DNA of 64,000 nucleotides, taken from contig PS015439.1 in assembly GCA_048213135.1 (NCBI GenBank), positions 1-64,000 on the forward strand, read 5' to 3'. Within the stretch, counting starts at the first letter, position 1. Each line of letters opens with the position of its first letter. The translations under genes and the position numbers were made by a program. Origin of the DNA: Reclinomonas americana ATCC 50394 (lineage: Eukaryota). Shown here piece by piece: positions 930-63,700 of this stretch. The notes beneath the pieces were generated by a model, which was not told where the DNA came from, ran no database searches, and was given only the letters and a program-made list of their open reading frames with translations.

Positions 930-3686
930 CTCGACGTGCGAGAGGCGGGGCTCCTGCTGCTCCACCTGCTGCCGCCGTGGCGCTGTCATTGGAGGACCGA
1001 TGGCCTGCGGAGCCGGTGGACGAGGCCGATCGTTGCGACGGTGGCCGATCGCGATCCCGGCTGCCATTGGCGACGAATGCAGTGGGGCTTTCGGCTCGCA
1101 CCGGCGACGGCGTGCGACGCCATGAACTGCGCCTGTTTTTTTAGTGGTGCGGCATCAACAACAGCAACGTACTCATCATCATAAACGTACCGTTCACCGC
1201 TGCCTGTTCTCCTGGCCGCATCCACGACCGTGGCCGATGGCGAGGGCGACGGTCGCCGCGGTGATGGTCTCTGGTGCCGGGGCGACGGATTGCGCGGAGC
1301 AGCAGTGTTGGCGGAGCGCGGGGGACGACCGGCTGCCGACGATGCCGAGCCGTGACTGTCTTGCGAGAGACGACGGCGCGGATGTGCGGCGGTAGCGGAG
1401 GCCAGCGACAATGGCGGTGGGGGAGCTCCGCCCGTGCCGCTGCGACTCGGACTCGACGATGGCCTTCTCCGCGGTCGCTCCAGTGACGAGTCGCGCGAGG
1501 AAGTTCGCGGGGAACGAGATCGCGTCGATGAGTTGGATCGACGTCGCGACTCCTCTGCTGGTGCGGCGACACCACTTCTGCACGCATGAAAGTAAGAAAA
1601 AATGACGCCACGACAATCACTTTCCACATGTAACGCAACAATGACGACAATGCACTCCCGCCACCACCACTGGTGCGTCGGCCTTGCGGCGACGGCTGGC
1701 GACGGCGTGTCGGGGTCGGGGTTCGCGATGAGCGCCCACTGCCACGCGAACTGTCGCTGGCGCGTTGCGGATCACGTTCACGCATGCGTCGACGCAGCTG
1801 CGCCTCGGCCTCCTGCGCTCGCGCCAACTCTCCCAGCGTACTCTCCATCTCGCGCTTGTGGCGTGTCACTGCGCGTCGCAATTTCTCCCGCTCCACCGCC
1901 AGCTCATCCTCCAGTCGTCGCACTTGGCGCTTGGCCTTTCGCAGCAACTCGGGATCCACTCCACCACCAACATCACTACTACCACCACCACCACCACTAC
2001 CACCTCGTGACCGTAATCGCTCGATTTGCAAGCCCTGCGACCTGTGTGAGCTCGGCGACGCCATGCCTACTGCTTCTTCTCGCTCTCTCTCTCTCTCNNN
2101 NNNNNNNNNNNNNNNNNNNNNNNNNNNNNNNNNNNNNNNNNNNNNNNNNNNNNNNNNNNNNNNNNNNNNNNNNNNNNNNNNNNNNNNNNNNNNNNNNNNN
2201 NNNNNNNNNNNNNNNNNNNNNNNNNNNNNNNNNNNNNNNNNNNNNNNNNNNNNNNNNNNNNNNNNNNNNNNNNNNNNNNNNNNNNNNNNNNNNNNNNNNN
2301 NNNNNNNNNNNNNNNNNNNNNNNNNNNNNNNNNNNNNNNNNNNNNNNNNNNNNNNNNNNNNNNNNNNNNNNNNNNNNNNNNNNNNNNNNNNNNNNNNNNN
2401 NNNNNNNNNNNNNNNNNNNNNNNNNNNNNNNNNNNNNNNNNNNNNNNNNNNNNNNNNNNNNNNNNNNNNNNNNNNNNNNNNNNNNNNNNNNNNNNNNNNN
2501 NNNNNNNNNNNNNNNNNNNNNNNNNNNNNNNNNNNNNNNNNNNNNNNNNNNNNNNNNNNNNNNNNNNNNNNNNNNNNNNNNNNNNNNNNNNNNNNNNNNN
2601 NNNNNNNNNNNNNNNNNNNNNNNNNNNNNNNNNNNNNNNNNNNNNNNNNNNNNNNNNNNNNNNNNNNNNNNNNNNNNNNNNNNNNNNNNNNNNNNNNNNN
2701 NNNNNNNNNNNNNNNNNNNNNNNNNNNNNNNNNNNNNNNNNNNNNNNNNNNNNNNNNNNNNNNNNNNNNNNNNNNNNNNNNNNNNNNNNNNNNNNNNNNN
2801 NNNNNNNNNNNNNNNNNNNNNNNNNNNNNNNNNNNNNNNNNNNNNNNNNNNNNNNNNNNNNNNNNNNNNNNNNNNNNNNNNNNNNNNNNNNNNNNNNNNN
2901 NNNTGCGAGCGCGCCGTCAACACCCGCCGATCGACGCACACGCATCCTTCCTCTCTCTCTCTCTCTTTCCCTCACCTGTTGCCGCAGCATCGCATTCTCG
3001 TCGCGCAATCGTTCCACCTCGACCGACGACGACGAGCCAGTCACGCCTGTCGATGCCGACGAGGCAGCCAGCTTGGCACGCAACTCCCGAATGGTGTTCT
3101 TCAGGCGACTCGGATCGGGCGAGTCCTCAAAGAACAGCGGCAGCGGGTAGTGGATGCGATCAAACTCCATGACATAGGTCAGAATGAGGTACCTCTTGTT
3201 GGTGGATCGCGAGCCGAGCGAGGCCGACGCCCCCACCACCACACTGTTGTCGCCATTGGCGGACTTGGCCGACTGCAAGCGCGCCAGGTCCTGGAACGTG
3301 AGCAGATCGACAAACACCGAGCGCGAATCGCCCGTCAACGCCGCCAACAGCATGCGACAGAACACGGAAAACTTCTTCGCACTGCCCGCCTTGTGCGTCG
3401 TCTTCTCAATGACTGCGCGTGGCAATCGTCGTTGAGCGACACCAACGCAAACATGTATGTGTCTGTGCACGTAACATTGACGAGTGAACTCTCCTCTCCA
3501 CGAGTCTCCACTGCCTCGCTCCTCCGCTTGCACCACCAACACAGCGCGCTCATCGTCGACTTCATGCTGCTCATCGCCGCTTCCCGAGGCCGCGCCACCC
3601 ACCACACTCACACTCATGATGTAGTCGAGCCCATGAAACCGCTTCTCACTCTCCACCAACAGCGGTGTCTCGCCACCGCCACTCAT
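930..3686 (-). CDS. CCDC61: Coiled-coil domain-containing protein 61 / VFL3 (basal-body protein), multi-exon, interrupted by gaps; 3' end not reached
   Basis: Spliced translation WRGEFTRQ-F-IEKTTHKAGSAKKFSVFCRML...VDLLTFQDL...NKRYLILTYVMEFDRIHYPLPL matches the CCDC61 head domain; then coiled coil and S/R-rich tail. ATG at 3686; intron 3413-3475. Confidence 0.92.
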
Positions 3687-3798
3687 CCTCGTCTGTGTAA
3701 CGGTGCAAAAAAAGCGGCTTCCCGCGCTTTCTCGTTTGGATTTGTCCTTGAATTTTCGATCTTCACAACCTCCATCCACCATATCACACACAGGCAGC

Positions 3799-6683
3799 AT
3801 GAGTCGGCATTACACCGACGGCGTCAGTGTGATCGAGGCGCGCGTGCCTCTGCTGGATGTTGCGTGTCCTCTTTGTCGTGTGTGTGTGTATGTGTGCGCG
3901 TGCAGGCGAAAACGAGCGAGTCCGAAGATGGTCATGTCCTGGGCTCACTCTCTCTCGCTCTCTCCAGCTCTCCACTGCGTCGCAGCGGCAGGCGGCATCG
4001 GGGAGCTTTGGTCGTCCTTCTGTGCGATCGGTGCCGGGAGTGCCGACTCTGGGCGCACGAAGGTGCGTCTCTGCTCTGTCTTTCTGTGAGAGAGAAAACC
4101 GTGCGATTGATCCGATGGCGCACAGCTGGCGCGTGACTGCGCAAGTGTACACGCATGGACGTGCGCCGGTGGTCAGTGCCGCGCTGTTGGAGCCTGTGCT
4201 GCGTCGATCGTCTGTTGCGTTGCAGTCGTCTCTCCCTGCCACCAGAGTGATCGATCCCACGCTCAACACTGTCACACAGCGACTGGGAAGCACGGGTGCG
4301 TCGCCGCCACGCATCACCGAAGTCGATGATGATGGGCACACGATTCCCATGACGACGGCCAGATCGATGGATTCCATGTCGACCATGGAGGTGGCCACGG
4401 CGCGCGATGCATCGCCTCGACAGTTGCGCTTCTTGTGTGTGTGCTCTGGTGTGTGTTTCGCGCATGATCGTGACATGGTGTGCTTGGGCAGTGGTGAGTT
4501 GCCGTACTTGGAGCCCGAGGCGCCTCCGCAGGCCGAGTGGACGCGCGTGGTGCGACACGAGTCGCCGAGTATCACCAAGCGAGTGGCGGCGTCGCTCTTT
4601 TATCGAGTTGCGTGCTCACTGCGTGCGAGTCGGGTTCGTCCCACTGCTGACCATGTGCATGCATGTTCACAGACACCGGTGGTGGCTGGGGCTGCGAATC
4701 CTGCGGCGTCGCCCCGATGGAACCGACCCGACTCGAATGCGTTGGACGCGGCAGGTGGACGCCGAGTCAATGTGGTCGACACGGCGTGGGATACGGAGAG
4801 AAAGAGTCTGTCGGGTTCACAGCGCACGTCGCCGAGTCCATCGCCGCGCCCCCTGCGTCTGGATGTGCCGGGGGCGGTTGGCACGCCGACGTCAAGAGGC
4901 TCCACACGGCCGCCGACTTCTCTCTCGGCCATTGATGTGGCCTCGACGCCGCGCTCCATGTCACGCCCGGGCACATCCGACAGCCTGTTGCGACCCGAAG
5001 GTTGTTCTTCAGCTCAGTCTCCAAAGTGCGCGCGTGGACTAAACTCTGCGGGGCTTGCAGGTGCAGGATCACCGCGCTCGCAGTCACCGCACGGAGTTCG
5101 GATACCCAGACCACCGCTTATGCGCGGCATGGTGGAGCGCGACGAGCATCCGTACTCTGGCTCTGTCACCGACTTGCCGAAACCGCCACTCACCATGGAG
5201 CGTGCGAGGCAGATTGTCTCCGAGTTTCAACGAGTTGTGTAATATCGCGAATTTCATGGTGGGCGCGTATCCCCACGCTCACCGTTTGCACAGCACTTTG
5301 AGACATCGTCGGTGCCGACCACGGTGGCTCGCCAGTTGAAGATTGCCCCGCGTGGTGAGAACGGCAAGCCAGTGTCCAATAGTGTGGACGGACCCGAGAA
5401 TGTTGCGTCTTTTTTGCTCGTCGCTGACGCGGATACGTGTCTTGCTCACCCGCTGATTGTAGTTTGGCAAGCTGGCGGCCAGCATTCGCGATGGTGTTGA
5501 TTTTGTGACCAGTGCGCTGCAGTCGTCGGGTGGAGTGCAGATGCCGCTCGACACGCTGCAGTCGCTGCAAGGTGAACTGCTGGAGGCCCACGTGCGCATT
5601 CAGCAAAAGGTGAGTGCTGTCATTGTCTTGGCATGTCGGTTGCTCTTGGTTCTCACTGCTGAGTGCTGTGAAAAGATCGAGGAGACGCAAACATTAATGC
5701 TGACCGATCAAGGCATCGGCACCGACGCAGTGGCGCTGCCGGAACCGTGGCAAGACCTCACACGCACTCCCCGACACACTTTTGATCCCGCCCATGCCAT
5801 CGAGGGTATGATTCTGTTTGTGGAAAAGGACAAGCGCGGACACGTGCTGGATGAGTTGTCGGTTGCGTGCAGTACTTTTCTCGTCGCCATCCTCTGGCGT
5901 ATTCTCATGTTGCGATCGCGGCAGGGCGAGGCATTCACGGCTGTCAAGGAACTGGTCAATGAGATTGTGTACGTGTCGATTTTCGAGGGTCAGCAGCGAG
6001 AGGAAGCGCGGCGGCAGGAGCAGCTGCGCAGAGAACAAGAGGAGCGCTCTCGTCAACGTTGAGTGACCAGCAGTGCCGTCGTTTTTTTGTGGTGGTGGTG
6101 ATCACCAACTGACAAGAGATGGTGATGCAGGGGAGCTGGTGCTCTTGTCACACGAAGACTTTGACAGTCATCGACTTCGCGATTTTGAGCGGTACCTGAT
6201 GCGGCAGGCGATTGAGTGGAGGGAGCGCGAGATGGAGAGACTGCGTGCGGAGGTCAGTTGCTTTTGTCGTCCGTCCGTCGCCTCTGTCCCTTTCATCTCA
6301 CTGTGTGCACACACAGGAGGCGCGCATGGTGGTGCACGGCGCGTATGAGACTGTCATGGCATGCGTCTCGCACGCCATGTCCATGTCGCAGGCGTCGGAC
6401 ATTGATTTCTGCTCGCTGATGGTGCAGAGCTGTTTCGAGCGTGCGGTGTTTATCAGGTGGCGTTTCTCTCACCGCCCAATACGAGCAGAGTGACCGCAGA
6501 GAGGGGGATAGATAGAGAGGGAGGGAGGGAGAGGGAGAGAGGGAGAGAGAACAGGGAGAAGTTTCACCATGAAAGGGAGGGGTGCGTTTGGGAGCTGACA
6601 GTNNNNNNNNNNNNNNNNNNNNAGGTAGGAACGGTAGGAGTAGGAAGAGGATAGGAGAGACGGAGGAGAGGAGACGAGGAGAG

Positions 6684-6757
<74 letters not shown>

Positions 6758-7792
6758 AGGGAGGGAGGGAGGGAGAAAGAGAGAGAGAGAACAGGGAGAA
6801 GTTTCACCATGAATATGGAGGGGTGCTTTGGGAGCAGACAGAACACAGACAGTGAGAGGGAGAGGGTGAGTGAAATAGAGAGTGAGTGTGTGAAACGGGA
6901 GAGGGAGAGAGAGACAGTAGAGGGGTGCTGTGGGAGCAGACAGTGAGAGGGAGAGGGTGAGTGAAAGAGAGAGTAAGTGTGTGAAACGGAGAGGGAGAGA
7001 GACACAGTAGGCAGGTTCACCGTGGAAATGGAGGGGTGCTGTGGGAGCAGACAGTGAGAGGGAGAGGGTGAGTGAGAGTGAGTGAGTGAAACGGGGGACA
7101 GAGAGCGCGCGCGCAGACAGAACTGAGATAGTAACCGAGAGAGAGAGAGAAAGAGAGAGTGAGAGAGAGAGAGAGTAGAAAAAGGGAGAGATAGTGAGAG
7201 AGAGAGAGAGAGAGAAAAAGAGAGTGCCTGTGAATATGGTGCTGACGGTGAATTGTCCGTGGTTATCGCAGTGACGAGACCATCACCACGGAGATGCGTG
7301 CCATGGTGTACAGCTGCGCCAACGCGGCGATATTCCTGGTGGATGCCGGTCTGGATGACCCCGCCGACATTGGTGTGAATTGGAGACAGTCGACGACGAT
7401 TGCCATGCAGCATGCGTACAGTCATCCGATGTCTCGCGCCGGCACTGGGCACACCCATGTTGCGTCGGAGACCGAATCGTGCAGACGAGTGCTTGCAAAC
7501 CCTCACAGCTTACCCTTAACAAACACACAGGACTCGTCGGTGCAAGCCGGTGTGATGGACATGTTCGTTGACGATGAGCTTTTTGCACGATCGCGGTCGG
7601 CAGTGGATGCACGCACGGTGTTGCACGATCTGGGGTACATGCAGGGACCGCCCGCGGTGAATCTGCGACGACCCACTCGTGCGGCCTCGGCCGGTAACAC
7701 GTACCGTCGACGATCGGCACGCTCCCTCCAACCGGGCTCGGTGAGCGTGCGATTGAGACGTGGTTATTGCATGCAATCCGAATGTCGCTCAC

Positions 7793-7840
<48 letters not shown>

Positions 7841-9035: not shown

Positions 9036-9287
9036 GGATGGGCGTTGTGAAGCAAAAGCAGATTGTTTAAGAGCGTGTGATATCGATGTAGATGAATGTG
9101 GACAGATGATATGTTTCGTGTGTACTGGGATGGTGGTGGCGATGGTGGAAGAAGTGGTGTCTCGTGGTGTGGTATCAAAAGGGCGGTGAGATGCGGTCGC
9201 AGCTGCGGCTCGTCGGAATTTTGACACAATTTTAACAACGACGGAACACAGCACTGGACGCACGTGCACACCGAGACGCGCGTAGCA

Positions 9288-12200
9288 ATGCGAGCGGCAT
9301 TCATCACTGTGCTTGTGCTTACCGTTGTTGGAGTGGCGCTTTACAGGTGAGGGAACAGCATCGCGTGTGTGTACGTACTAGTCGGTGTGAGAGCACACAC
9401 AAGGGCGTGGTGCATTTCAGCGCGTCGGTATACTTCTTCGGCTGGCAGTCGAGAGCTGGCGCAGCATATAATGTCTCGCGGCTGGCGCGCGAAATCGGTG
9501 AGTTGTGCACATGTGGTCGCATCTTGACTGTGCATGCATTCCTCCGCTCACTCTACTGCCATGCCGATTCTTGTCAACAACACAGGCGACTCGACGCTGG
9601 CGCTGACAGAGCGCCTCGGGGCGTTTCGCGACGAACTCGGCAGTGCATGTGACGAGCTGCAGCTGGAGCTCGATGCGCGGTGGGCGAATACTGGCGTGAA
9701 TCGTTTGTCTGCGGATCACGTTCTCCTGGCATGCAAGGATGCGCTGGTAAGGGCTGTCAAGTTCACTCTGTGGGAATCGCTGCGCGCAGCACGTGTGTGG
9801 ATAACGTACGATGTGTTGTCGACAACAGTCTGTACTCAAAGCCACCGGCGATGGCACCGAGAGAGACATAATCGAATCAGTGCGCGCTCGTGCGCAAACA
9901 TTCGAGGAAGAAGTGACTGTTGAGTGACCAGTGCAGTGTTCCACCGATGGGTGTTGCGCACTGACGCTTCACGTCACCTTGGTGCACAGAAATACGCGGA
10001 GCAGGAGTTTATCAAGCATGCGCACACGGTCTCATCGAGCCCGTTGGAGATATTCAGCAAGTTGCCCGAGTCGTGGAAAGCCCTGCAGCCCAAGTTCAAC
10101 AACCTTCGCGAACGACACCAACGGCTTGAAGAGCAAACAAGCTGGAGGCCAGCTGTACAGGTCGCCATCTCGACTTTGTGGGTGGTCTATGGTGTTGCGG
10201 TTGCCATTCTTATTGCGAGACGGTGTTCGCGAGGAGACCAACCAGCGCCCGCGCCACCGTTGCCTCCACCTCCACCAGCTGTGCCGAGGGAAAACGAAGA
10301 GAGACCGGAAGAGGACGCGGCAGTGGGTGAGTGCAGAGGTGGTTTGCTTTCTTGCAGCAGCAGCTCTCACTGTGGGATGCGCCGAGGAAGACAACGGCGA
10401 TGACGACGCGCCGAAAGTCCGCAACCTCAACCTTGTACACCAACAACGACGTCAGCAACAACCTGTCCACCATCGTCATCACCTGCATCATCCTCAGCAG
10501 CAGGGCCACGTGCAACAACGACGAGTGGTGGTACCACGTGCGGACAATGGTGTGGTGCGTGAACCTTCGGCATTTCCAGGGAATGCCCTTGATCAATTCT
10601 GATTACTTGGCGCAGTGCACCTTCTGGCGCGTAATGGCACTTGTGCTGCTCGGCATTGCGCTGCTGGTATTCACTGTTGGATTTTACAAACGTGCGTAGT
10701 GTCTCGTTTTGTTGTGTCGTCCCGCTGTGTGCTGGTGTTGTGTTAGCTCACCCCTTCCGCGCTCTCGGGCACAGTACGTTGGTTCTCCATGTCCGTTGCC
10801 CCACTCGCGGTGCGGTCACTCAATAAGTGCGAATCGATGAGAGCAGACCTCTCTCGCCACTGTGAGGCGCTTCAAGGTTCTATCAATGAGCTGCGAAATG
10901 GCTTTGGCATGTTTGTGAAGTACGAGAGCTTAATGTGCGTTACTGGTCGCTTCTCGTGTCGCGCAGTTCTACAAAAATTGATTTAGTTGGTGTCGCGATG
11001 TGTAATGCAGGACACAGCAAATGATTGAAACATCGCTGCAGGTTATCCGAAACACCAGTCCTTATGCGCCACGTGCTGTATACGAGACGCACATATCCAA
11101 GGCTCTGGCAACTCTTGAATCACAGGAGGTGCCGACATGTTTCCTCTTTATTCTTGCTGGTGGTACTCTCGATTGAATTTGTGGTCAACCTCGCAGCGGG
11201 GCCGGTGCGGGAAGCATGTGGCGCCAGTGTTGAACGCTTTGCGGGAATACCAACGATATGTGATGAAATTTGGAGACGAAATTGTGTCAGTGCTCAGGGA
11301 CGCTCACGAAATGACCAGGCTAGTACACTTGTATTTCAGTTCTATGTATGTGCTCTCCAAACACTGAATTCTTCTATTTGTTGCTTGCAGTTTATTCCGT
11401 GAGAAAATGCATTTTTTCCAGGAGCACGCAGAAAGGGGTAAGTCGCTGTGACGCGTACGTGCTGATACCGTGACCTCGATCTCGACCTCACACTGCCATG
11501 CGCAGGCGATGTCCACATCACTGATGCTCTTCTCGAGACCATGCATCGTAAGTACAAGGAGATGCGGGCTGGCGTGCTTGGCTCCGAAAAGAAGCTGATG
11601 CCTATCAGCACTGCCAACGAGCAGGTTTGAAACTCAGTTGCTGTAGATCAGTTTCTTGGGGTTGAATGGCAGTATTCTTGCAGGTCAAGGCACAGCAGGA
11701 ACTGGCGGAGCCGGGTATTGAAAATGCTATTGATCGCTCTCGAAGGCCAGCAATTGTCGGTGCTATCGCCGGTGCTTTGGTTGCCGTTTTTGTTGCGTCT
11801 GCTTGCTGCAAGTGGGTCTTGCAACGTTGAAACTTGGATACATGTATTGCTGCTGTTCACGCGTACGCTTTGAAAAATAACTATTTTCGATATCTTGTCG
11901 ATGCAGAATCCGGTGGCTGGAGCTGTAGTACTAGCAGCCGACGGTGGCTATGCGGTGCACAATGAGAGCACATTCGTCCGAGGTCTGTGTTTATATTGTG
12001 TGGGTTGATTATTTCTTGCCAACCACCACTCGCACCACTGAAATGAATGCATTAATGCTTTGCAGATTGCAAAGCAGTAGTGGGAGTGCTGCAAGACCTT
12101 CGTGATTCTATCACAAAGGCATGTACACGTGCTGTGACGTGCTTATCTCACTCATCATCTTAACTTGGCAGTCATCACATCATGTAGGACGACGAGTCTG

Positions 12201-12682: not shown

Positions 12683-13944
12683 CTACGAGCTCGATGACGT
12701 CGCTGTTGCCCCTGCCGCAGCTGCGCCTCCCGACTCGCCATCCGCATGCCGCGAGCTCCGCCCAATCGCCGCCGCCACGTGACTGCTCGCCTGCAGCGCC
12801 ACCAACGCCGCATCGTGCACCTCCCGCACCTGCGCAGCACTGCCCCGCATCTGCGCCAGCACATCCTCAATCGTGCTGCTGCTCAGCGGAATCGGTGCGC
12901 CCGCCAGCCGCTGCACACCGCCCCACCCGAGCCACACCAGCACCACACCCAGAAGCACAATGCCCAGCATTCTCCGCATGCACTGCTTTGCCGCATCCAC
13001 CTGCTTCTGCACCTCCAGCCGCCGCTCCTCCAGCTCGCGCATCTCACGCTGCTGCTCCTCCTCCGCGGAGTCGTCTCGACGCATCACAACGCGCAGCTGC
13101 TCCACCCGCTCACGCAGCTCCCGCAACTGCGCTTGCAACCCCGCCTCACGCTGCCGGTACCCCACAACGCCGACCACCGCAATCGCGCACAGGCACACAC
13201 CGATGCCTTGCAACGACTGCACCCAGTCCAACCAGCTCTCGCTCGCCGCCGCATACGTGAACAGCGCACGCACTTGCATCTCCACGTCCTCCAGCTCCCG
13301 CTGCAGCGCCGTGCTCACAATCGGTGCGGCCACCGCCTGCAGCCGCGTTGCCGCACGATGCATGATCAGTGCCAGCTCCTTGTCGGCCTTGCTGTGTGGC
13401 AACACCGCATTTGCCTGCGCCATATCCGACGCCAGCAGCATCGCCACCGCCGTCTTCAGCGCCACCACCGTCTCCTGCAGAGTAGCGGTAGCAGTGAGCG
13501 AGGCATGTGAATGAGTGAATGAGAGAGAGGGAGAGAGACGCAACCCGCAGTTTGCTGCACGCCTCTCGTGCGACAGTGAGTTGCTGTCTGGCCGCCACCG
13601 ACACCTGTGCCAGTGCCGCGCCCAGCTCCGACGCATTCACCGCGTCGTCCACGTTCTTGAAGTAGGCCTCGAAATGATCAGTCGCCAGCTGCAAAGCGCA
13701 GCGAGTGATTCCATCATCATTCATCATCCATCATCGTCGACACTCGAGTGGAGGAACGCACCGACAAGTCGACGAGCAGAGCATTGGCTTGCTCGTGCGA
13801 CGACGCCGTCACTCTGCGCGCGAGGGAGGAACACGTGTTTGCGTGAGCGAGTGAATGCACAATGCAGAGTTGCGAGCACGAACGCAACAACAAGAGACAC
13901 ACTGCCACAAGCAGCAGAGCGAGCGCGGTGGAGTGCAGCCGCAT
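12683..13944 (-). CDS. Family B copy 1: ~350-aa signal peptide + 2 TM + coiled-coil protein; truncated distant paralog of family A; 4 exons
   Basis: MRLHSTALALLLVAVCLLL signal; 3 introns join in frame; TM1 GIGVCLCAIAVVGVVGY; E/R-rich coiled coil; TM2 MLGIVLLGVVLVWLGW. Confidence 0.85.
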
Positions 13945-34769: not shown

Positions 34770-34860
34770 AAGTGCATGCATGTCAAGCATGCATGCGCTG
34801 TACAAAAACAAATGAAACAAACAATGTTGCGAACTCGTATCATCCGTCTACAGACAATCA

Positions 34861-45312: not shown

Positions 45313-49735
<4,423 letters not shown>

Positions 49736-51749: not shown

Positions 51750-54700
51750 TTGGCAATACCAACTGACCAGCCACAGGGAACTGATGGAAGGAGCCGCCAA
51801 CGCGCACAAGTCGCAGATTGACCGTGTTGACCTCTGGCCAGTTGCACATCCACACCGGATGGTACACGTCATGACGAGTGAGCACCAGGTGCGGGATCGG
51901 TTCCACCACGGTAATAGCGCGTTCTGCGAGGCGCACACACCGAGGAAGTCAGTCAAACACCCTTCAAGAAAAGCACCGGCTCGATTTCTTGCCGTACCGA
52001 CAAGCACCACCGAGAAAACACCAAAGACACCATCGTCGAGCACGATGGTAAACTCGACCGTCTCCGAGGCCGCCAGCGACGGAATAATGGCCGTGGATAC
52101 GAGGTCAACAGGCGGTGACGACGGGACGTTCCACCAAACGCCATTCCTGAATGTGCCGTCACAAACGGTGGCGCGATCCACACTGACTGCCACCGTAGTG
52201 CTCGTGCTATTGGAAGAAGGTCGCTGCTGGAACAGCAGGTCGACATTGGCCGTGACCACGGTCGGATTCTCGCACGACCACATCAGCGAGAGCGGTTCCT
52301 GACCGTAGTATGCCACTGTATCGATGAAAGCACACATGTTGAGTGCGACATCGCCATCAATGCCAATCTACGAAAGTGAGGAACCTGGCATTGCCGACGA
52401 GGCCAGACGCGTTGTGCCAAGCATTTGCAGCTGAATGGTTGACATGAACAGCAAGTTGGCACTGATCGTGGAGAACGGATACCACGTCGACGCGTGCCGC
52501 ACACACAGCTGCAGCCGACGGGCTACCGATGCAGGCGCGCTGCCGAGGGTGTACGGCACCTGCGAGATACGAGGTGAATCTAAACGTGCAACACCGAGTT
52601 TCAATCCACGAAGAACGCAACCAGCAGTCGACTGCCACCCCCACTGGGCACACCAACAGTGCCTACTGCCACACCGGTGGCACACGAGTCGGTGGCGGCC
52701 ACAATTTGGAAGCGCTCTCGGTCGGCATTCAAGTTGACACCCATCACTGTCAGTGTGTACCACTCGTTGTCACGGTTGACACGGTGCGACGGTAAATTGT
52801 CCACCGACACTGTGAGCAACGGACGTGGTGAGAACACAACACTCCGCAATACTCAACTACCGCATGAATCGCCTCACCCAGCTGCAACGCAGTGTTGTCT
52901 GCCACTGCGCCCCACTGCACTGCGGGATCGGCGCTGGCCGGTCGCATACATACGTGGTACGCCTGCGCTGTGGCAGTTACGGGAATCGTGACTTTCACCA
53001 CCAATGTCGAGGGCACACCGCTCGCATCCAGTGTTGTGGCCACGACGTTGAGCATGGAGGGCACCAGCGGGGCAGCCGGACTGCAGTCCACGTTCCACGG
53101 AACCACCGCCACATCCGTACCCACCGTCAAGTTGATGCCACTGATGGTGACGCTGACGGACGAGAGCGAGAACGTGGCAGGAACGGTTAGCAGGCGAGGA
53201 ATCGCCACGGGAGTCAGCGCCGTCGGCCGAGCTGCGAACAGTGCAATAGTCAGACATCCTCATCCAGCCTTCGACGTACGGGACAAATACGTGACATACC
53301 CAAAGTAATGACATTCAGTCCAGCACCAGCAGCCGCGCCGACTGGTGTCCACGCAAATGCGGGATTGGCAGCTGCCGAGTTGCGTATGCACAGCTGCAAA
53401 GCCGCTGGTGCACCGGGAGATGGAGTTGTCGACGAAGTAACGGCCACCCGCAGCACGAGTTGGGTGGACGAACTGGTGGCCGCATCCACTGTGACAGAGC
53501 CGACGGGGACTGTCGATGCGCTCGAGCACGACGAATCGGCTGCCACCAAGGCAAACGAATCGCGCGAGGCGTTCAGGAACAGACCCGGGACGACGAGTGT
53601 CTTTGCCAGGCTGTCAGTGACCATCAGTGTTGGCGATACGGCACCCGTCGACACTGAGGAAGAGAAAGGGAGAAAAAGTCAACAAACAAGTGATAAAAGG
53701 CGGCATGACATGTCAACAATGCAGACCGAGGATCAGCTGCTGGCCAGGTGCAGCATCGCCAAACTGCGCACTGGCACTTCCACCCGGTTTAATGCACACC
53801 CTGCGCGCACCAAGACAGTGCATGAGTGGATTATGCACATGTACCTATCCTTGCACACCACCAGCGCAACTTATACACCCCGGCCGTCAGCGGGAGCGCC
53901 AGCGTCAGCGTAGCTGAGGAAGGTGGCGAGGTGACGACCGTGGTAGTGATGGCGGCAGCCGGACTGCTACCAGCAGGCATGGTGCACGTAGTCGACGGAA
54001 GAGCCACCACGTACTGATCGGCGGCGTCGAGGTGTGCGCCAACCAGCTGCACAGAGAGTGGCGATGTGCCGATAGAAAGAACATTGGGGACAATCGACGA
54101 GATCACCACTGCGAGAATGATCGTAAGTTATTTCAGCACGCAAACACGCTCGGGAGGGGATCGACTTTTTGTCGTACCTGCGGTGACATCGCCGTTGCTC
54201 GCCACTGGCGTGAACTCAACAAATGGCGTGCCGACATTGACCTGGATACACATGCGCAGGAATGTGCCGTTCACCAAGTCGGCTGGTACTGGCACCGTGA
54301 CCAGCAACTCAAGGGACGTGTCGGTTGGTCCAACAGGATCCACTGCACAGCGCGAATGAGCAACGCATCAGCAGAAAACGTGCAAAATGTGGTCACTTCC
54401 TCACCAGTGATAGCGCCGACAGTAGCGCCGCTGGCACATGTCGTCGACCGCAGCACCAACTTGAACATGTCACGTGCCTTGTTCAAGCCATTGCCTTGAA
54501 CGGTGATGCGCTTCGCTGATCCGTCAGCAACAACGGCATTGGGAATCAGTGCAGCCGCGCGCACTGTGCAAGAAATCAACAGGACTGCCAAGACCAACAC
54601 AAGACTCATATGCTACTACGCACCGATTGACAAGCTGGTCGTACCCACTTGCGTGTACGGCGAGACACCGTCCACCGAGAAGCACACGATGTCTGCACTC

Positions 54701-57700
54701 GATGTGAGACACACACGCACGCCACACCGCACTCGGTAGAAGGTGCACGCAACAGCTGCCGGTCGGAATGGGACCTGGAGTGACACCCAGCGGCAACGAT
54801 GCTGCCTGCGAGACCACGGTGGTCGAGGTGAGAGGAATGCCGGAGCCGTTGCAGGGAGCCGTGCTGGTAGACTGTAGCTGGAAGAACTGGGTGCTTGCCA
54901 GGTTTGTGCCGACAACAGTGAAGCCACTCGACAATGTGTCAGTGGCCGCCGTGGCTGGTAAGAATCCAGTGGCAGCGACTGCGCGCGGCGGCAATGGAAA
55001 GCTGCTGTTAGCGCTGCCAGCATACGCGACTCGCACGAGAAGAAGAGAATGAGAACGAAACTGGCGGCAATCACAAACGTCTTCTGGAACGAAGCGCCAC
55101 CGCTGTCGGTGACCCGAATGGTGACTACAAGATTGGAGGCTGTCTGTCCTGCTGCTGTGATGCGTAGCTCAGGTGGCACGGCCGCGTTGCTGATGTTGAA
55201 CAGTGCATCGCCCTGGCCAGGCACGATGGAGTACACGAAAGAATCTTGCGAGTTGGCATCGACTGCTGAGAGTGTACCGAGCACGAAATTGTTGGTCAAG
55301 GTAGGTGCCACATAATACTGCTTGCTGAGTCCAATATTTGTGGGAGGCGAGTTACCTGCACGCATTGGGTGTAAGGGAAGACGAAAAATAAGGATTGCGA
55401 GTCAGAGTCATCAAAGAATGAGAGAGAATAGGAAAGGGGTAGAGGTGACGAGAGAGGGGAGAGCAACAAGATTGCAAAGCAAGAACAAACGAAAAGACGC
55501 AACTTTCGCTGATGGTGAAAACTTCGTCTCGGAACAGGCCGGCGCTGTCGGTGGCGCGAACAATCACGCTCAAGTTGTTTCCCACCTGACCAGCGTTGCG
55601 CACTACCAACGTGGAACCGACGATTGCGAAGAGATTCATATTGGCGCCACCGACCAGCGAGAACGTTGCAATATCGGTCACGTTGTCGTCAAGCACCGTG
55701 AGATTGCCGACGGGTGTGTTGGGAGTGGTAGACGCAGGTGTGTAGGAGTACGACGACATCAGAACGGCCCGTGGCGGCACCGGAACTAGTGATGAAGCGG
55801 TGAGGAAAAGGAAATGTAACAGCGGTGAGGAAAAAGGGAGATGTAACAGAGGTTGAAGACCGAGCTACGCACCATCAGTGACGACAAACTCCTTGTCGAG
55901 TGATGCCGGGCCGAGAGTATCCGTGACGCGCTGTTTCCATGCAGTCAGTCCATTGCCATCATGCACGACCACATAATCCCCTCCAAAGAACAACCAACGC
56001 ACCACAATGACATGCAGGTTGGTGCCAACCTGGCCGGCGTTCACCAGCACCAGATTGGCACCGAGAACGTTGAACAGCGTTGAAGACGACCCGCCGACAA
56101 TGGAAAACACGTGCGCCTCCGGAGGCGAAGAATTGGCATCAACCACAGAGAGTGCACCGATGACGGTGTTCGTCGTCACAGTAGCCGGCGTGTACGTGGA
56201 GGACGACAGAGAGAGAATGGTGGGTGGCACATTTTCTATGGAGAATAGAATATACACGATGTGAGTTGTTGCCACACCAACATGCACTCACGAGCGAGCG
56301 ACGCACGTTCGGTAACCGTCAGTGTCGAATCCAGAATGCCACCAGCGCTGTCAGTGGTACGCACCACCAGCTGCATACCGTAGCCTTTAACACCAGCTGA
56401 CGAAATGCGGAGCTGATTGCCAAAGACTGCGACACAGGGCCTCATTGGNNNNNNNNNNNNNNNNNNNNNNNNNNNNNNNNNNNNNNNNNNNNNNNNNNNN
56501 NNNNNNNNNNNNNNNNNNNNNNNNNNNNNNNNNNNNNNNNNNNNNNNNNNNNNNNNNNNNNNNNNNNNNNNNNNNNNNNNNNNNNNNNNNNNNNNNNNNN
56601 NNNNNNNNNNNNNNNNNNNNNNNNNNNNNNNNNNNNNNNNNNNNNNNNNNNNNNNNNNNNNNNNNNNNNNNNNNNNNNNNNNNNNNNNNNNNNNNNNNNN
56701 NNNNNNNNNNNNNNNNNNNNNNNNNNNNNNTAATGGCGGTGGGTGGCACGGGCACTGCACAAAAAGTAGCTATAGTGAGGGAGTGGGAGAGCAAGGTGGC
56801 GACTGCTGGCGAGCACCGACGCAACAGTCGTTGATGACAAAATTGCGGTCGGAGAAGCCGCCAACCGAGTCCGTCGCTCGAATCTGTGGCGCCACAAAAA
56901 ATGTCAGTCACAAGGACGCAATGCTGCAACCACACTCTGGCTCTTCTTCGTCAAATTACCGTGAGAGTCAAGGCAGTGCCGCGCTGACCAGCCGCCACAA
57001 AGGCCAACTGGGGTGGCATCGTGGCCAGCACGGTGAAGAGGGCACCAGAGCCGCCAGGTCGCACGGTAAATGACACAGTTTGGCCAGTGTTCACATCCAC
57101 AGCACTGAGAATGCCAATAGGCTGCAGGGCGCTGGTGGTCGGTGGAGTGTAGGTGTTGTTGCTGAGGGAGATAGACGTCGGCGGCACGTTGGCTGTTGGA
57201 AAATGCGTCAGGGAGCAATCATCAACGCAGGAGACAAGCGGAGGGATTTCGCAGACCTTCGTTGATTGTGAAGGTGGACGTGATGGAAAGACCGCCCGAG
57301 TCGGTGGAACGCACTTGCACCAAAAGGCCATTACCGGAGAGTCCCGTGGTGGCCACCAACAGGCGATCGTTGCTGATGCTGAAGGCCAGCTGATTGGCAC
57401 CGCCGACAATCGAGTACGTAAATGTCTCTCCGGTATTGCTGTCGGTGGTCGTCAGCTGACCAACAGTGGCACCCACCACGCCCGGCGGCGTGTACAGTTG
57501 CGGTGAGAGTGCAAGTGCCGTTGGTGGCACATTGGCTGGCCATGGCGCGAGAAATCATGATCAGAAACAACAATCAACAAACACCAGCAGGCGGTGACCA
57601 CCGACCTTCATTGAACGTCAGCGTCTGCACCGCGCTCCGGCCAGTGTTGTCCGTCACCTGCACACAGCAGTCAGCACAAAAGCAGCGCACTTGGACACGG

Positions 57701-60700
57701 ACAATCCTGCAAACTCACCTGCACAACCACCTGCAGTCCGTTGCCCGTCTGACCCGCAGAGCGGAGAACCAACTGGTTCCCTTGCACATCAAACAAGGCG
57801 GCCGAAGCGCCACCCACGATTGAGAACGTGAACGNNNNNNNNNNNNNNNNNNNNNNNNNNNNNNNNNNNNNNNNNNNNNNNNNNNNNNNNNNNNNNNNNN
57901 NNNNNNNNNNNNNNNNNNNNNNNNNNNNNNNNNNNNNNNNNNNNNNNNNNNNNNNNNNNNNNNNNNNNNNNNNNNNNNNNNNNNNNNNNNNNNNNNNNNN
58001 NNNNNNNNNNNNNNNNNNNNNNNNNNNNNNNNNNNNNNNNNNNNNNNNNNNNNNNNNNNNNNNNNNNNNNNNNNNNNNNNNNNNNNNNNNNNNNNNNNNN
58101 NNNNNNNNNNNNNNNNNNNNNNNNNNNNNNNNNNNNNNNNNNNNNNNNNNNNNNNNNNNNNNNNNNNNNNNNNNNNNNNNNNNNNNNNNNNNNNNNNNNN
58201 NNNNNNNNNNNNNNNNNNNNNNNNNNNNNNNNNNNNNNNNNNNNNNNNNNNNNNNNNNNNNNNNNNNNNNNNNNNNNNNNNNNNNNNNNNNNNNNNNNCC
58301 AGCACTTGCAGGTTGTTCCCCGACTGGCTGGTGTTGACGAGGCGTAGCTGGTTGCCGGAGATGTAGAACAAACTGGCATCGGCACCGCCAACAATCGAAT
58401 AGGTGAATGTCGAGGCTGTGTTCGCGTCCACGCCTTGAAGGATGCCAACCACTTGCCCTGGCGTCGGATCCAGTGGCACATATGATGTGCTGTCCAGCAG
58501 GAGGTTGGAAGGCGGCACATTGGCTGCGTGAATCAACCATCACGACATGTCAGCACTGGAAACGATCGATATCGAGGAAGCGCATCAACGAGAACAACGC
58601 ACCCTCGTCCAACACAAATGGCTGATCCACAAAGTTGCCGGTGGAGTCTGTCGATCGTACCACCACCTGCAGTCCGTCACCGCGTTGCCCAGCGTTCTTG
58701 AACACCAGATTGCCATTGACAACATCAAAGAGGGCAGCGTCGGCGCCGCCAACAACCGAGTAGGTGAACGAGTCAGTCGCGTTGGAGTCAGCAGTCGTCA
58801 GAACGCCGACCACCGCATTGGTTGAGGCGGTGGGTGGCACGTAGGTACTGGAGGAGAGCGACACCGACGTAGGTGCCACGGGTACTGCGAGGGAGAGCAA
58901 TGTGAGTCTCCCAAGGCTGCGTCACATGTCAGTCAATCATCGACATACCATCGTTGACAGTGAACGGCACATCGAGTGAGGCACCGGCCGTGTCGGTGGC
59001 TCGCACAATCACGGACAGATTGGTTCCCGTCTGACCAGCATTACGCAAGCACAGCTGATTTCCAATGATGGTGAACAGCGCCTGGTTAGCACCGCCAACA
59101 ATGGAGAACGTCGCCGTGTCCCAGGCATTGAGGTCGGTGGCGCTCAACGTGCCCACTGGCTGATTCGCAGCCAACGTGGCCGGCGTGTATGTGTTCGACG
59201 AGAGAGAGATGCCGGAAGGAGCAACATTGGCTGCGAACGGGTAACGAAGGTTCTGTCTGTGTCAGTATCGCGTCACTCTCCGTACAAGGGACACGATCAA
59301 CTCTAGCACACCATCACCGAGAGACAGCGTTGTATCCACTGTTCCACCACGGCCATCATCTGTTCGCACAATCACCTGCAGGTTGCGTCCACTCAAGTTT
59401 GGCACAGCGGTGCGGATCTGCGATCCAACAACAGCGAACAAGGCCGCATCGGCGCCACCGACTCTGCAGACAGACAAGAGCGGGTGAGTGATGTGAACTT
59501 GCATCGAAGAAATGTCGTCGAGCACAATGTCGCAACATGGAATAGGTGAATAAGTCGCAGCAGTTTGCATCAACGCCTGCCAATGTGCCGACAACGGTGC
59601 CGGCAGGAGACAGCGGTGCAACGCCGGGAGACGAGATAGTGACACCAGCTGGCGGCACGTTCACTGCGCAAACACGCACAGCATAAAGATGAGACACACA
59701 AGATGTTCTTCTTCATCTCTTGAATGTCACTGACCTTCGGTAATGACAAATGACTGCGTGGTGGAGAGGCCAGTGGCGTCGGTCACTCGCACAGTGACTG
59801 GCACATTGGTACCAGTGGAGCCAGCCGAGAGCCACACCAACTGATTGCCACCGACAACACCAAAGATGCCGCCGCCAGTCACCACGCTGAATGTGAATGC
59901 GGTGTCGAGCACATTGGGGTCGATGGCGGACAGGGTGCCAATTACTTGATTTGGCACCACCGTCGGCGGCACATACGAGGTCGAGCTCAACAGCACGCCG
60001 GTCGGTGGCACGGGCACATCCGTGATGACAAACACGTGGTCGACAGAGGCTGATGCTGAATCCGTAGCTCGCACCGTGACGGAGAGATTCGCGCCAGTGA
60101 GTCCCGCCGACGTAATTCGCAGTTGGTCGCCACTAATGTTGAAGAGGGAACCGGAGCCACCCGGCAGGATCGTGTACGTCACCGTCTGACAGCAGTTGGC
60201 GTCGACAGCGGACAGTGTGCCAACCACGGTATTGGCAGCTGCCGAAGGTGGCGCATACGTTGCCGGCGACAACGAGATGCTCGACGGTGCCACGTTGACT
60301 GCAATAACAACGTGAGCAACGGGTGCGCAAGGATGGCGGGGAGCAGCACATCGCACCTTCGTTGAGGAAGAAAGTGGTGTCTTGTGAGCCGCCGTTGCCG
60401 TCACTCACGCGAACAGTGATGATGAGGTTCTGCAACAATCCACGTGAGCAAGGGTCACACACTCTCTTGCAGCCGCGTGAATATATACACACCATGCCGC
60501 TCAGCACCAGCGTCTGCACGCGCAGCTCATTACCAGCAACACCACCAATCTGCACATAGCACACAATCAGAGTCGCGCGACACCAACACAGCGAATGACA
60601 GACAGAGCGCAACGTAGAACTTGGAGTCATCGTCATTGCCAATGAGAGTGTACGAAAGACTCTGACAGCAGTTGGCGTCGGTGGCCGACAACACTCCAAT

Positions 60701-63700
60701 CAAAGCATTCTGCAAACTACGTGGAGCATAGAATGTTGTCGACAGCGCCAGGTTTGCTGGTGGCACGTTGGCTGCAGAACAAATACAATCAGTGGATAGC
60801 AGGCGCGTAGAATCACGTGCAACTGAGAATACCTTCGTTGATGCTGTGCGCGGAGAGAGAGAGAGACACACGGAGACGCACGTTGAGAAACAAAAGATAG
60901 ATGCAAGAATCAAAATGAGAACCACAAATCTCCGCGACAGCACACGCACGTAAATGTTGTCTGCAGAGTTCCACCACGACCGTCGGATACTTCGATGCGG
61001 ATGCGCAGGTTGTTGCCAGTCTGCCCGGCCAGTGCCAGCGATAGCGTCGACCCGCTGAGCACAAACAGCGACTCGTTGAAGCCGGCGACAACCGTGTACG
61101 TGTATGAGCCCAGCGTGTTGGCGTCGACGGCGGTGAGCGAGCCCACCACCACTCCGGCGGTGGGAGTTGGCGGCACATATGTGTTGGAGCTTAGCACCAA
61201 TGCCGACGGCGGCACATTCACTGTGCGTACGGACGAGTGAGATGACATACAACAGGCATGATCGACAGAGATGTGGGACCTTCAGTGATGGTGAACAGCT
61301 TGCGGACCCAGGCACCGGCCGCGTCGGTCGACTGCACTTCGACCTGCAGTGGATCACCACGAGAGTTTGCGGCGCTCAGTCGTAGTTGTGTGCCGTTGAT
61401 GTTGAACATGGCAGAGTGCGGGCCGCCAGAGATTGCTGCATTGACATTGACAAGATCACGATCATGTCAGTCTCAAATCACAGATGGTCACCCCACACAA
61501 TTGCAATCCATGCACGCAGCAGTAGGTGAATGTGTCACCAGTATTGATGTCCAACGTGGTGAAGAAGCCCACCACCACATTCGCACTCGAGGTCGGTGGA
61601 ATGTATGTCGTGCCCCACAAAATAATGTCACTTGGTGCCACGTTGACTGCAGTCGACCAATCACCCATCAGTCAGTAAGGCACACTTTGCAGTGTACGAG
61701 CTCGTCGGTCATTTCCGCAACACACACCTTCGTTGACAGTAAACGTGCGGTCCAATGAGGAAAATCCATCAGAGACACGAATGGTGACCAGCAATCCAGT
61801 GCCCGACAAGCCACCGGGAACATTGGCAAGCAAGTCGGTGCCGGAGACCGCAAACAGACCCTGGTTTGCGCCTCCAACACTGCATGATAGAGGGGATCAG
61901 CCGGCAGGCACACGAGAAGGTAAGCAGCAAAGAAAACACGGCTGGTCGTTGCGCAACATGGAGTAGGTGTGTGACTGACAACAGTTGGCGTCGATCACAA
62001 ACAGAGAGCCAATAACTGATCCCTGTGCCGCTGGCGGCACGTACGTGGATGGCGACAGCAGAAGATCACTCGGCGGCACATTAGCTGCGCAACAAGAAGT
62101 GAACCACACGCGCAGCAGATGTGCTAACCCACCGCCGGCAACACCAACCTTCAGTGATGGTCAGTGTCTGGTCGACAGAGCCGCCCGCGCCGTCGTCGGC
62201 GTGCACAATCACGGTGAGAGGCGACGTGTTGAGAGTGGCAGCTGCAACCACCAGCTGGTCTCCCGACACGGAGAACTTGCTGGCATCAGGTCCACCAACA
62301 CTGACAAAGAAGACTTGCGTGAGAACGAGATCGCAGGACGCGCCAGCTCAACGGTGAACGCACATGGAATAGGTGAACGATTGACAGCAATTGGCATCCA
62401 CAGCCGCCAGCGTGCCAACGACCGTGCCCAACGGTGACGGCGGTGTGTATGTCATCGACGACAAGGTCACCGCCGTCGGTGCCACATTGGCCTCGTCCAG
62501 CACAAATGTCTGGTCTCGAACACCACCTGCGCCGTCATCGACACGCACAACAATGCTCAGACTGTTGCCGGTGAGCGGGCCGCCACTGCTGTCGACCACC
62601 AGTTGGTTTCCAGAGATACTGAATCGAGACGCAGCAGCGCCACCAACAATCGAGTAGGTCATGCTCTGACAGCAGTTTGCGTCCCTGTGGTGGCGTGCAG
62701 AGTGAGGATTACACGAACCCCAGATGGACCATGAGCAATCATGAGTGCAAACGCACGTGGTCGAGAGCGTGGCAACGACGGTGCCAACGGGTGCGGGTAC
62801 CGGCGAGTACGTGGTGGTGGAGAGTGCCAGTGCGGACGGAGGCACATTGGCTAGCGACAGACTAGATGAGCGACACAGACACAAGAAGGCAGAGAAGCAC
62901 ATGCACGCACCTTCGTTGACGGTAAACGTCTTGTCAAAGTGCGCGCCAGACGGATCACTGACTCGGACGGTGACTTGCAAATTGTTGCCCTGCTGGCCTG
63001 CGTTGCGGAGTACTAACTGCGAGCCGACAATGTCGAAGAGAGCACTATTCGCACCACCGACGATAGACAGTGACAGTGCGTCGTTCGCATTGCCATCGAC
63101 ACCAGTGATTGTGCCCACCACCGTATTGGCAGCGGGTGTGGGTGGTGCGTAGGCCGACGAGGATAAAAGTACGTCGGTCGGGGTCACGGGCACTGCAAGC
63201 GACCGAGAGAGTGAGCAGCGACTCTCTCTGCAAACACCAAATATCGTCACTCACCGTCGTTGATGGTAAAGAACTTGGCCAGCGTTTGTCCACTGGCATT
63301 GGTTGACAGCACCTGCACTTGCAGACCGGTACCTCGCTGTCCCGCAGCTCGAATTACCAGTTGATCCCCAATGACCGAGAACACAGCAGCATCGGTTCCG
63401 CCCACCACGGCGTAGGTGTAGGGTGAAGAGGCAGATGTGTCGGTTGTGGAGAGCGTGCCAATCACCGTATTCGCGGTCGAGGTCGGTGGCGTGTAGGTGG
63501 TCGAGGATNNNNNNNNNNNNNNNNNNNNNNNNNNNNNNNNNNNNNNNNNNNNNNNNNNNNNNNNNNNNNNNNNNNNNNNNNNNNNNNNNNNNNNNNNNNN
63601 NNNNNNNNNNNNNNNNNNNNNNNNNNNNNNNNNNNNNNNNNNNNNNNNNNNNNNNNNNNNNNNNNNNNNNNNNNNNNNNNNNNNNNNNNNNNNNNNNNNN

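Follow-up and report, generated by a model that had tools for sequence, protein, structure and literature searches.

In textbook accounts, U1 small nuclear RNA (snRNA) pairs through its 5' end with the 5' splice site, or donor, in one fixed register; the canonical U1 5' end is ACUUACCUG, and the canonical U6 box is ACAGAGA. Departures from this register are known only as uncommon exceptions in human, with a few dozen sites of the GUU type. According to the relevant passages of PMC4856993, an initial prediction placed 10,248 of 201,541 human donors in a non-canonical register, a set that was curated to 4,270 (2.1%), and the validated non-canonical registers together comprised 3,119 sites (1.5% of 201,541), with 54 sites in the +2/+3 bulge register and 36 in the +3 bulge register. 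In the shifted-register sites of Roca and Krainer (2009), as described in passages of PMC4856993 and PMC6140464, the U1 pairing is all moved by one. Here we describe a class of donors, typically GTTGCGT, in a 64,000-nucleotide stretch of nuclear DNA of Reclinomonas americana ATCC 50394 (contig PS015439.1, positions 1 to 64,000; hereinafter referred to as the window), in which the conserved block of the ordinary donors, GTGCGT and GTGAGT, lies one base further into the intron (hereinafter the shifted class and the ordinary class).

Like the human shifted-register sites in those descriptions, the donors of the shifted class start with GUU, carry the consensus one base downstream, have no G at +5 and appear to be cut at the first GU. 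Such sites are rare in human, whereas here they make up about 17-20% of modelled introns; further, the consensus is GUUGCGU and not GUUAAGU-like, and its predicted pairing with canonical U1 is poor. The class also resembles the human +2/+3 bulge register, in which GUU is followed by a displaced consensus and one U is bulged (Roca et al., 2012, and Tan et al., 2016, the latter being PMC4856993, as far as its passages describe it), although the missing preference for G at -1 argues here against anchoring of the exon end to C9 of U1. Entamoeba combines the donor GUUUGU with a U1 carrying ACAAAC, and Mastigamoeba GUACGU with ACGUAC (main-text passages of bioRxiv 10.1101/2022.06.08.495308). The window shares with these two a lineage-specific donor motif that canonical U1 matches poorly, but they have a single genome-wide consensus with base substitutions, whereas here two classes occur in the same genes with a one-base offset. 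The same passages give a standard U1 for lineages with GTGCGT-like donors, namely Thecamonas (C at +4) and Mamiellales (GYGCGY). The ordinary class of the window (GTGCGT/GTGAGT, with C commonest at +4) resembles these donors; unlike the window, neither lineage has a second, offset class mentioned for it in the main-text passages of that source. No description of a GUUGCGU-type donor class was found in the literature, among the matches listed. The novelty lies in the scale, which exceeds the human figures by two to three orders of magnitude, and in the motif and the signature at the -1 base.

The initial annotation had listed 36 donors of this kind (19 on the plus and 17 on the minus strand), and all 36 coordinates begin with the words it gave: GTTGCGT (22), GTTGAGT (4), GTTGCGC (4), GTTGCGA (1), GTTTCGT (3), GTTACGT (1) and GTTGTGT (1). 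Its remark that the donor mostly follows an exon base other than G also held, as G precedes the GT at 2/36 sites. The 36 sites are not independent of one another and correspond to about 28-29 positions once paralogs and internal repeats are taken into account.

Counted over both strands, the heptamer GTTGCGT was found in 44 copies, where Markov models of order 1 and order 2 predict 14.6-15.9. By z-score it was the top non-repeat GT-heptamer and sixth overall, preceded by tandem-repeat words only. Among the 16 one-base insertion variants of GTGCGT, GTTGCGT alone was clearly enriched (3.0x), the rest ranging from 0 to 1.41x; with another base inserted at +3, the values were 0 for GTAGCGT, 0.71x for GTCGCGT and 0.89x for GTGGCGT. 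Relative to the predicted genes, 38 copies of GTTGCGT lay in sense orientation, 5 in antisense (p = 2.5e-7) and 1 outside, and the sense/antisense split was unchanged when gene orientation was taken from the blind parse described below. The sense-strand excess suggests that about 33 copies in the window are functional.

Introns were modelled by two parses. In the supervised parse, signal models were trained on the validated introns of family A, a set of four tandem paralogs (see below) that includes the shifted class; it yielded 203 introns, whose median length was 67 nucleotides (nt), and 51 of the 55 training introns were recovered. Known errors of this parse are a wrong donor at 40348 and the reading through of introns that are open in frame. 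In the blind parse, which was made to remove the circularity of training on a family containing the class, the donor model was retrained on the 12 ordinary positions of family A and every other GT received a flat floor score. Outside family A, the blind parse chose GTTG[CA]G[TC] as donor at 10/77 occurrences (13%), compared with 27/144 (19%) for the ordinary GTG[CA]GT. Five classes of insertion decoys were chosen at 1/245, the three decoy classes with another base at +3 at 1/143, and other equally low-scoring GTs at 16/4898 (0.3%).

The supervised parse contained 24 GTTGCGT donors where independent base frequencies at each donor position predict 0.35, and the blind parse contained 7 where they predict 0.05. 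When the class was defined as GTT[GAT][CAT]G[TC] without G at +5, it comprised 35/203 modelled introns, 28/143 outside family A and 29/156 with paralogs collapsed, which bears out the earlier description of a major class. The floor given by the blind parse was 10/141, and in validated family A the class occupied 2/14 positions. From these imperfect models of one window we estimate that the shifted class makes up about 17-20% of modelled introns, or roughly one in six.

At the individual sites, 25/36 were used as donors by the supervised parse and 12/36 by the blind parse. The 11/36 missed by the supervised parse were mostly introns open in frame, and for that reason were read through; ten of them were spliced by hand. 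Motif-consistent proteins were obtained at 31207, 3475 and 56825 and an open reading frame (ORF) at 21725, while the support for 4423, 4607, 5862, 7459, 54753 and 55061 consisted only of an open spliced frame and a good acceptor.

The two classes differed in the donor and at the base preceding it. Ordinary donors (G at +5, n = 133) had G at -1 in 76%, G, A or T at +3, C, T or A at +4, with C the commonest (41%), and T at +6 in 71%. Donors of the shifted class had T+3 (100%), G+4 (100%), C or A at +5 (97%; C 82%), G+6 (100%) and T+7 (88%); T+3, G+4 and G+6 are fixed by the way the class was selected, and T+7 and C+5 are not. The shifted class thus presents the ordinary G[CA]GT block one base further into the intron and with less variation, and the block was found displaced by one base only with T at +3. 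G stood at -1 in 3/35 introns of the shifted class and in 102/135 of the ordinary class (p = 3e-13), or in 3/29 and 77/100 with paralogs collapsed. Among full-consensus donors, the numbers were 2/29 for GTTG[CA]GT and 26/41 for GTG[CA]GT (p = 1e-6); since full-consensus ordinary donors keep G at -1 in 26/41, its loss is not compensation for a strong intronic match. The -1 base of the shifted class resembled the background of NGTTG in the window (G 6-10% against 14%).

The other signals were alike. A branch-like CT[CGA]A[CT] was present in 69% of introns of the shifted class and 59% of ordinary introns, C at -3 of the 3' end in 33/35 and 118/135, and the pyrimidine fractions were 0.59 and 0.58. 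Median lengths were 72 nt for the shifted and 65 nt for the ordinary class, with a range of about 55-150 nt in the shifted class. The similarity of 3' signals and length points to both classes probably being handled by the same spliceosome. U12-type introns have 5' ends of the [AG]TATCCTT type and were rejected as an explanation, because the donors here are GTTGCGT, GTTGAGT and the like and the 3' signals are those of ordinary introns. An introner-like mobile family was likewise rejected, as an all-against-all blastn of 35 introns of the class returned paralog pairs and one low-complexity match only. A regular expression for a branch motif followed by YAG was uninformative, since 38% of all GTs satisfied it.

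Family A consists of four diverged tandem copies on the plus strand (about 9.3-12.2, 14.0-16.9, 17.5-20.3 and 22.3-25.1 kb; copies 1 to 4), which encode a membrane protein of about 595 amino acids (aa) and are 60-87% identical over repeat segments. Their four-way alignment showed conserved, gap-free blocks alternating with variable, indel-rich blocks, and 14 introns were placed at common alignment columns. In each exon, a single frame was free of stops in all four copies, these frames linked up over all 14 introns, and the predicted third codon position was the most variable in 13/15 exons. Chaining of the frames needed adjustment of some boundaries (the intron 5 acceptor, the intron 6 donor of copy 4 and the intron 9 donors of copies 3 and 4). 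The four spliced coding sequences, of 591-605 codons, were all open. All 56 introns began with GT or GC and ended with AG, specifically CAG or TAG; they were 53-115 nt long, except for a doubtful 31-nt case in copy 1, and about 57% contained the CT[CGA]A[CT] motif.

Introns 4 and 13, two of the 14 positions, belonged to the shifted class in all four copies, both in phase 0. Intron 4 began with GTTGAGT in copies 1 to 3 (9919..9989, 14642..14712 and 18106..18178) and with GTTGGGT in copy 4 (22877..22934, unlisted earlier); its exon-final base was a synonymous third position (ACT or ACA). Intron 13 began with GTTGCGT in every copy (11792..11906, 16563..16635, 20003..20091 and 24763..24824). All eight were placed by paralog alignment and frame, and that at 14642 was also chosen in the blind parse. 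Ordinary donors of the family varied between copies, being GTGAGT, GTATGT, GTAAGT, GTCAGT, GTGCGT, GTTTGT or even GC.

Several further features of family A introns were observed. At intron 10 (11319 and 19526 in copies 1 and 3), copies 1 and 3 carry GCTAGT and GCAAGT and copies 2 and 4 GTTTGT and GTGCGT, and at intron 15 (about 12119) copy 1 has the donor GCATGT; as GC-AG introns occur at paralogous positions, GT and GC donors interconvert between recent paralogs. Copy 1 has CCG at intron 5 (10327-10386), where the other three copies share the acceptor CAG, and an upstream TTGCAG would preserve the frame with 9 codons added; this copy may use an alternative intron 5 acceptor or be decaying. 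The donors of intron 14 (11983, 16712, 20168 and 24901) are GTCTGT, GTTTGCGT, GTTTGT and GTTGGT. The 8-mer GTTTGCGT has 7 raw copies against 3.1 expected, a count that hints at a possible two-base-offset donor variant.

Family B comprises two 96%-identical copies on the minus strand, interleaved with family A, of a secreted or membrane coiled-coil gene of about 350 aa. Indels that distinguish the copies (14 nt, 3+3 nt and 10 nt) occur only within the three introns, two of which begin with GTTGCGT, and both spliced ORFs are open from ATG to stop. Intron 1 lies at 13814..13888 in copy 1, with the 14-nt indel inside and an open ORF, and at 22007..22083 in copy 2, where paralog comparison and the ORF agree. 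Intron 3 of copy 1 (13475..13544, 70 nt) contains the 10-nt indel, and its removal is needed for the ORF. Its paralog in copy 2 (21666..21725, 60 nt) was read through in the supervised parse, and splicing it gives an open ORF. Neither family A nor family B matched a Pfam family above threshold.

Junctions at other sites were pinned by protein homology, and the initial annotation's use of protein motifs for this purpose was upheld for the CCDC61, Myb, M16 and cadherin-like genes by spliced translations and, for CCDC61, a PDB match. In the CCDC61-like gene, both exons flanking the intron 3413..3475 (minus strand, GTTACGT) match the same protein. The upstream exon aligns with residues 29-49 of 6hxt_A, its only match and weak alone (E = 0.6), and the downstream exon aligns from residue 53 at its first residue (E = 1.5e-21); two residues and a split codon follow residue 49, then residue 53, so that the junction contains no gap. 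Splicing of the 60-nt intron 31148..31207 (minus strand, GTTGCGT) in the Myb-repeat gene gave ...FTADQC^NQHWHRVLNP, and in the unspliced translation the Pfam match spends 73 residues on 51 profile positions. In the M16 peptidase gene, splicing of 40363..40435 (minus strand, GTTGCGC) and of the next intron gave a product reading GIAHMLEHCVFLGTEKYP, which we take to be the insulinase-type zinc motif (HxxEH). This assignment rests on the spliced translation and its agreement with that motif; the two micro-exon ORFs returned no relevant PDB matches, the queries being too short to confirm it. The SART3-like intron 44634..44713 (plus strand, GTTGCGT) lies inside an RRM, where the spliced product reads ...GHAYVEMEDR^ESVQRAI... 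and the upstream exon covers RRM_1 positions 25-48.

The cadherin-like repeats allowed a comparison of both classes at one homologous position. At the point TYS^IVGG, some repeats have no intron and others have one, with the donor GTGCGT at 62301..62363, GTTGCGC at 61880..61957 and GTTGCGA at 59464..59536 (all minus strand) behind an identical exon end (..CAT|). GTGCGT and GTTGCG donors thus interchange at this position, and at 61957 and 59536 the cut can fall only at the first GT because no GT is present at +6/+7. Between repeats, the 148-nt intron 55356..55503 gave ...VFTISE^SNSPPTN and the intron 56755..56825, beside an N gap, gave ...NFVIND^LPVPPTAI (both minus strand, GTTGCGT).

Taken over these cases, introns of the shifted class have GT-AG ends, and their removal restores a continuous frame or homology (families A and B; CCDC61, Myb, M16, RRM and cadherin-like genes). 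The sites of the class are very probably real donors, judged from the sequence, and the best reading is that these would be genuine GT-AG introns of the major spliceosome, cut at the first GT. The class is distinct, and not the tail of a degenerate motif.

As to how such donors are read, we consider recognition one base out of register, through shifted pairing of U1 and probably also of U6, to be about evenly poised between true and false. The recognition block that normally lies at +3 to +6 (G-[C/A]-G-T) would be placed at +4 to +7, behind an obligatory T+3. The 5' end of U1 would pair with G+1 as if it were the usual exon-final G; U+2 would stand mismatched opposite the position that usually pairs with G+1, U+3 would replace the usual U+2, and G+6 and U+7 would occupy the pairing places of the usual G+5 and U+6. 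The later steps, involving U6, U5 and Prp8, would then cut at the only available GU, for which U6 would also need a one-base offset or weak pairing. Such a shift accounts for two features of the class: no G is needed at -1, because G+1 takes the pairing place of the exon-final G, and only T is allowed as the extra base, because U+3 takes the pairing place of U+2. The loss of G at -1 as a prediction of the shift was derived in this analysis and is not a published criterion. Of the earlier proposal that U1 and U6 are read in a register-tolerant or variant manner, the statistical signature of a shift, namely the T-only insertion and the loss of G at -1, therefore stood; the part played by U1 and U6 is what we infer from it.

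Several observations weigh against this shift. RNAduplex with AUACUUACCUG, the canonical U1 5' end given in a passage of PMC4856993, averaged -1.4 kcal/mol over the class, weaker than ordinary donors (-6.0 kcal/mol) and even random GTs (-2.5 kcal/mol), in a calculation that leaves out pseudouridines and U1 proteins. From this mean, poor pairing between canonical U1 and GTTGCGT is predicted whichever register is taken. U1 pairing leaves the strong C at +5 (82%) unexplained, and the shift would lead one to expect A at -1, pairing with U10, where A reached just 26-28% and T was commonest. Moreover, the class frequency depends on our own gene models with their known errors, the class was present in the family that served to train the supervised model, and all evidence comes from one 64-kb window with about 20 genes.

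Given the weak duplex and the missing A at -1, recognition of GUUGCGU by a variant U1, or by some other factor suited to it, is retained as an alternative to the shift. The class would in that case be a donor type recognised separately, by a second U1 variant, by a U1 whose 5' end has changed or by some other factor reading GUUGCGU directly, and would not represent a mis-register tolerated by canonical U1. We regard this explanation as unlikely, though with several observations in its favour. It suits the prediction that random GTs pair better with canonical U1 than the class does, as well as the tight constraint on all positions from +3 to +7 (T+7 88%, C+5 82%) and the retention of the heptamer in 4/4 paralogs while ordinary donors drift between copies. 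Precedents exist in Entamoeba and Mastigamoeba, where the 5' end of U1 co-evolved with the donor; on the other side, the two lineages with C at +4, Thecamonas and Mamiellales, have a standard U1 (both from the same passages of bioRxiv 10.1101/2022.06.08.495308). The 3' signals and length range common to the two classes also speak against a dedicated factor, as does the finding of 0 snRNA genes in the window by Rfam at gathering thresholds.

In a second alternative, which appears quite unlikely, U1 would pair normally with G+1 and U+2, one U of +2/+3 would bulge, and G+4 to U+7 would pair as +3 to +6 usually do. This register has the same sequence requirement (GUU, then a displaced consensus) and has been validated experimentally in human cells (passages of PMC4856993); a U beside U+2 would be a natural bulge and could account for the T-only enrichment. 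The positions -1, +1 and +2 would still face C9, C8 and A7 of U1, however, so that G at -1 should remain favoured no less than in ordinary donors, and the observed 3/35 against 102/135, or 2/29 against 26/41 among full-consensus donors, is the opposite. Since anchoring of the exon end should keep this preference, and the preference is absent, we rank the bulge below the shift. Donors with an extra C, A or G were, in addition, neither enriched nor used (1/143 for the three +3 decoy classes).

That there is no separate class, and that these sites are variants of a degenerate, GTNNGT-like donor or an artefact that arises from the gene models, from the composition of codons or repeats or from mobile introns, is very improbable. 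Ordinary donors are indeed degenerate, from GTGAGT, GTGCGT, GTAAGT and GTATGT to GTCAGT, GTTTGT and even GC; GTTGAGT by itself had no raw-count enrichment (11 against 9.7 expected); and unsupervised gene finders were unreliable. Against this stand the 24 GTTGCGT donors where 0.35 were expected, the 7 where the blind parse would give 0.05 by independence, the 38 sense against 5 antisense copies, the keeping of the word in paralogs and its pinning by homology, and introns that share no sequence beyond paralogs. This explanation is largely refuted. Least credible of all is a real cut at another GT, such as that at +6/+7 of GTTGCGT, the donors being ordinary ones misplaced by five bases: most members of the class do have a GT at +6/+7, but a 5-nt shift breaks the validated family A frames and the pinned junctions, and 59536 (GTTGCGA) and 61957, 60613 and 40435 (GTTGCGC) have no such GT and yet give a repeat- or motif-consistent protein.

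The remaining introns of the class are distributed over the window as follows. The M16 gene (34786-40750) contains further GTTGCGT introns on the minus strand at 40643..40718 (supervised and blind parses), 39207..39273 (supervised parse, spliced frame open) and 37125..37196 (supervised parse), together with two that were unlisted earlier, 35664..35719 (supervised parse) and 35261..35325 (both parses). In the SART3-like gene (41771-45161, introns on the plus strand), GTTGCGT introns were found at 42470..42533 (supervised parse) and 43234..43292 (both parses) and a GTTTCGT intron at 44893..44968 (both parses). A candidate at 44323..44397 (GTTTCGT) is open in frame and was read through; a branch-like motif and TAG were recognized by eye, and the acceptor is uncertain. 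The initial annotation counted 5 of 14 SART3-like introns as shifted; the supervised parse gave 4/11, and the number becomes 5 with the intron read through at 44323.

In the cadherin-like region, a GTTGCGC intron at 60550..60613 (minus strand) was obtained in the supervised parse, with a consistent spliced translation. Two candidates on the minus strand were read through by the parse: 54693..54753 (GTTGCGT), a 61-nt option with a branch-like motif and CAG whose acceptor is not settled, and 54979..55061 (GTTTCGT), with the best acceptor at 83 nt and an open spliced frame. Near the start of the window, on the plus strand, introns were modelled at 5234..5293 (GTTGTGT) and 6058..6130 (GTTGAGT) in both parses and at 5402..5462 (GTTGCGT) in the supervised parse. 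Candidates in the same part and on the same strand are 4423..4491 (GTTGCGC; best acceptor at 69 nt, one open spliced frame) and 4607..4672 (GTTGCGT; best acceptor at 66 nt), both outside the parse, as well as the GTTGCGT introns 5862..5924 and 7459..7530, with best acceptors at 63 and 72 nt and one open spliced frame each.

Other members unlisted earlier came from the supervised parse only, all with GTTGCGT unless stated: 1578..1639, 26014..26087 (GTTTCGT), 26389..26459, 46424..46492, 47379..47454 and 52560..52621 on the minus strand, and 34179..34257 and the 127-nt candidate 3859..3985 on the plus strand. One more, 45443..45509 (minus strand, GTTGAGT), was found in both the supervised and the blind parses.

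The window itself is eukaryotic nuclear DNA with a G+C content of about 57% and nine N gaps, and it contains about 20 closely packed genes with many very short introns each. Intron density is very high, with 14-15 introns per 1.8 kb of coding sequence in family A and about 31 introns in the M16 gene, and (GA)n and (GT)n microsatellites are frequent throughout. Recognisable genes encode a CCDC61 homolog (PDB 6hxy_A, E = 1.9e-22), a Myb protein, a peptidase of the M16 type, a SART3-like protein in which HAT repeats are accompanied by an RRM and a weak Lsm-interaction motif, and cadherin-like repeat proteins. The last are encoded on the minus strand between 51800 and 63500 and include at least one very large gene built of repeats of about 100 aa (..ANVPPS..TY.PP..VG.L..D.N..FTYSIVGG..). 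Many of these repeats carry an unusual NCCQ(S/T) motif, the presence or absence of an intron varies between repeats at the same position, and N gaps break up the gene models.

Exon-by-exon Pfam searches gave few matches because the exons are short. No relatives were found for a 295-aa M16 ORF among 1.84 billion protein representatives, nor for an M16 exon ORF or a SART3-like exon in a word-indexed protein collection, and no related loci for a family A exon in metagenome contigs; the lineage seems to be poorly sampled in public protein sets. Rfam at its gathering thresholds returned 0 matches in the window, and transfer RNA genes likewise numbered 0. Three gene-finding procedures were set aside: one that scored donors as bare GT, whose chosen donors were mostly noise; unsupervised expectation-maximization on splice signals, which ran away to 590 introns; and a hand-scored gene finder with decoys, which was inconsistent between paralogs.

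Gene finders trained on one position-independent donor model will wrongly place or overlook about one in six introns here, and our own finder read through 11/36 of the listed sites. At the level of the organism, we tentatively propose, at somewhat less than even confidence, that two modes of 5' splice-site recognition are inherited in the same genes, with about one in six introns read off-register via a tightly fixed GUUGCGU that scarcely pairs with canonical U1 in the calculation above, which would imply a second variant of U1, perhaps also of U6, matched to the motif, or a spliceosome with an evolved, built-in tolerance of a one-nucleotide offset separating the cleavage site from the recognition helix. 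If true, this would be the first non-canonical register to serve as a major donor class and not as a rare exception. An offset motif in about 15-20% of introns, kept across duplicates, would provide a natural system for asking how the cleavage site is fixed when U1 is off-register, and the same system would address whether U6 follows the shift and whether snRNA variants co-evolve with donor classes.

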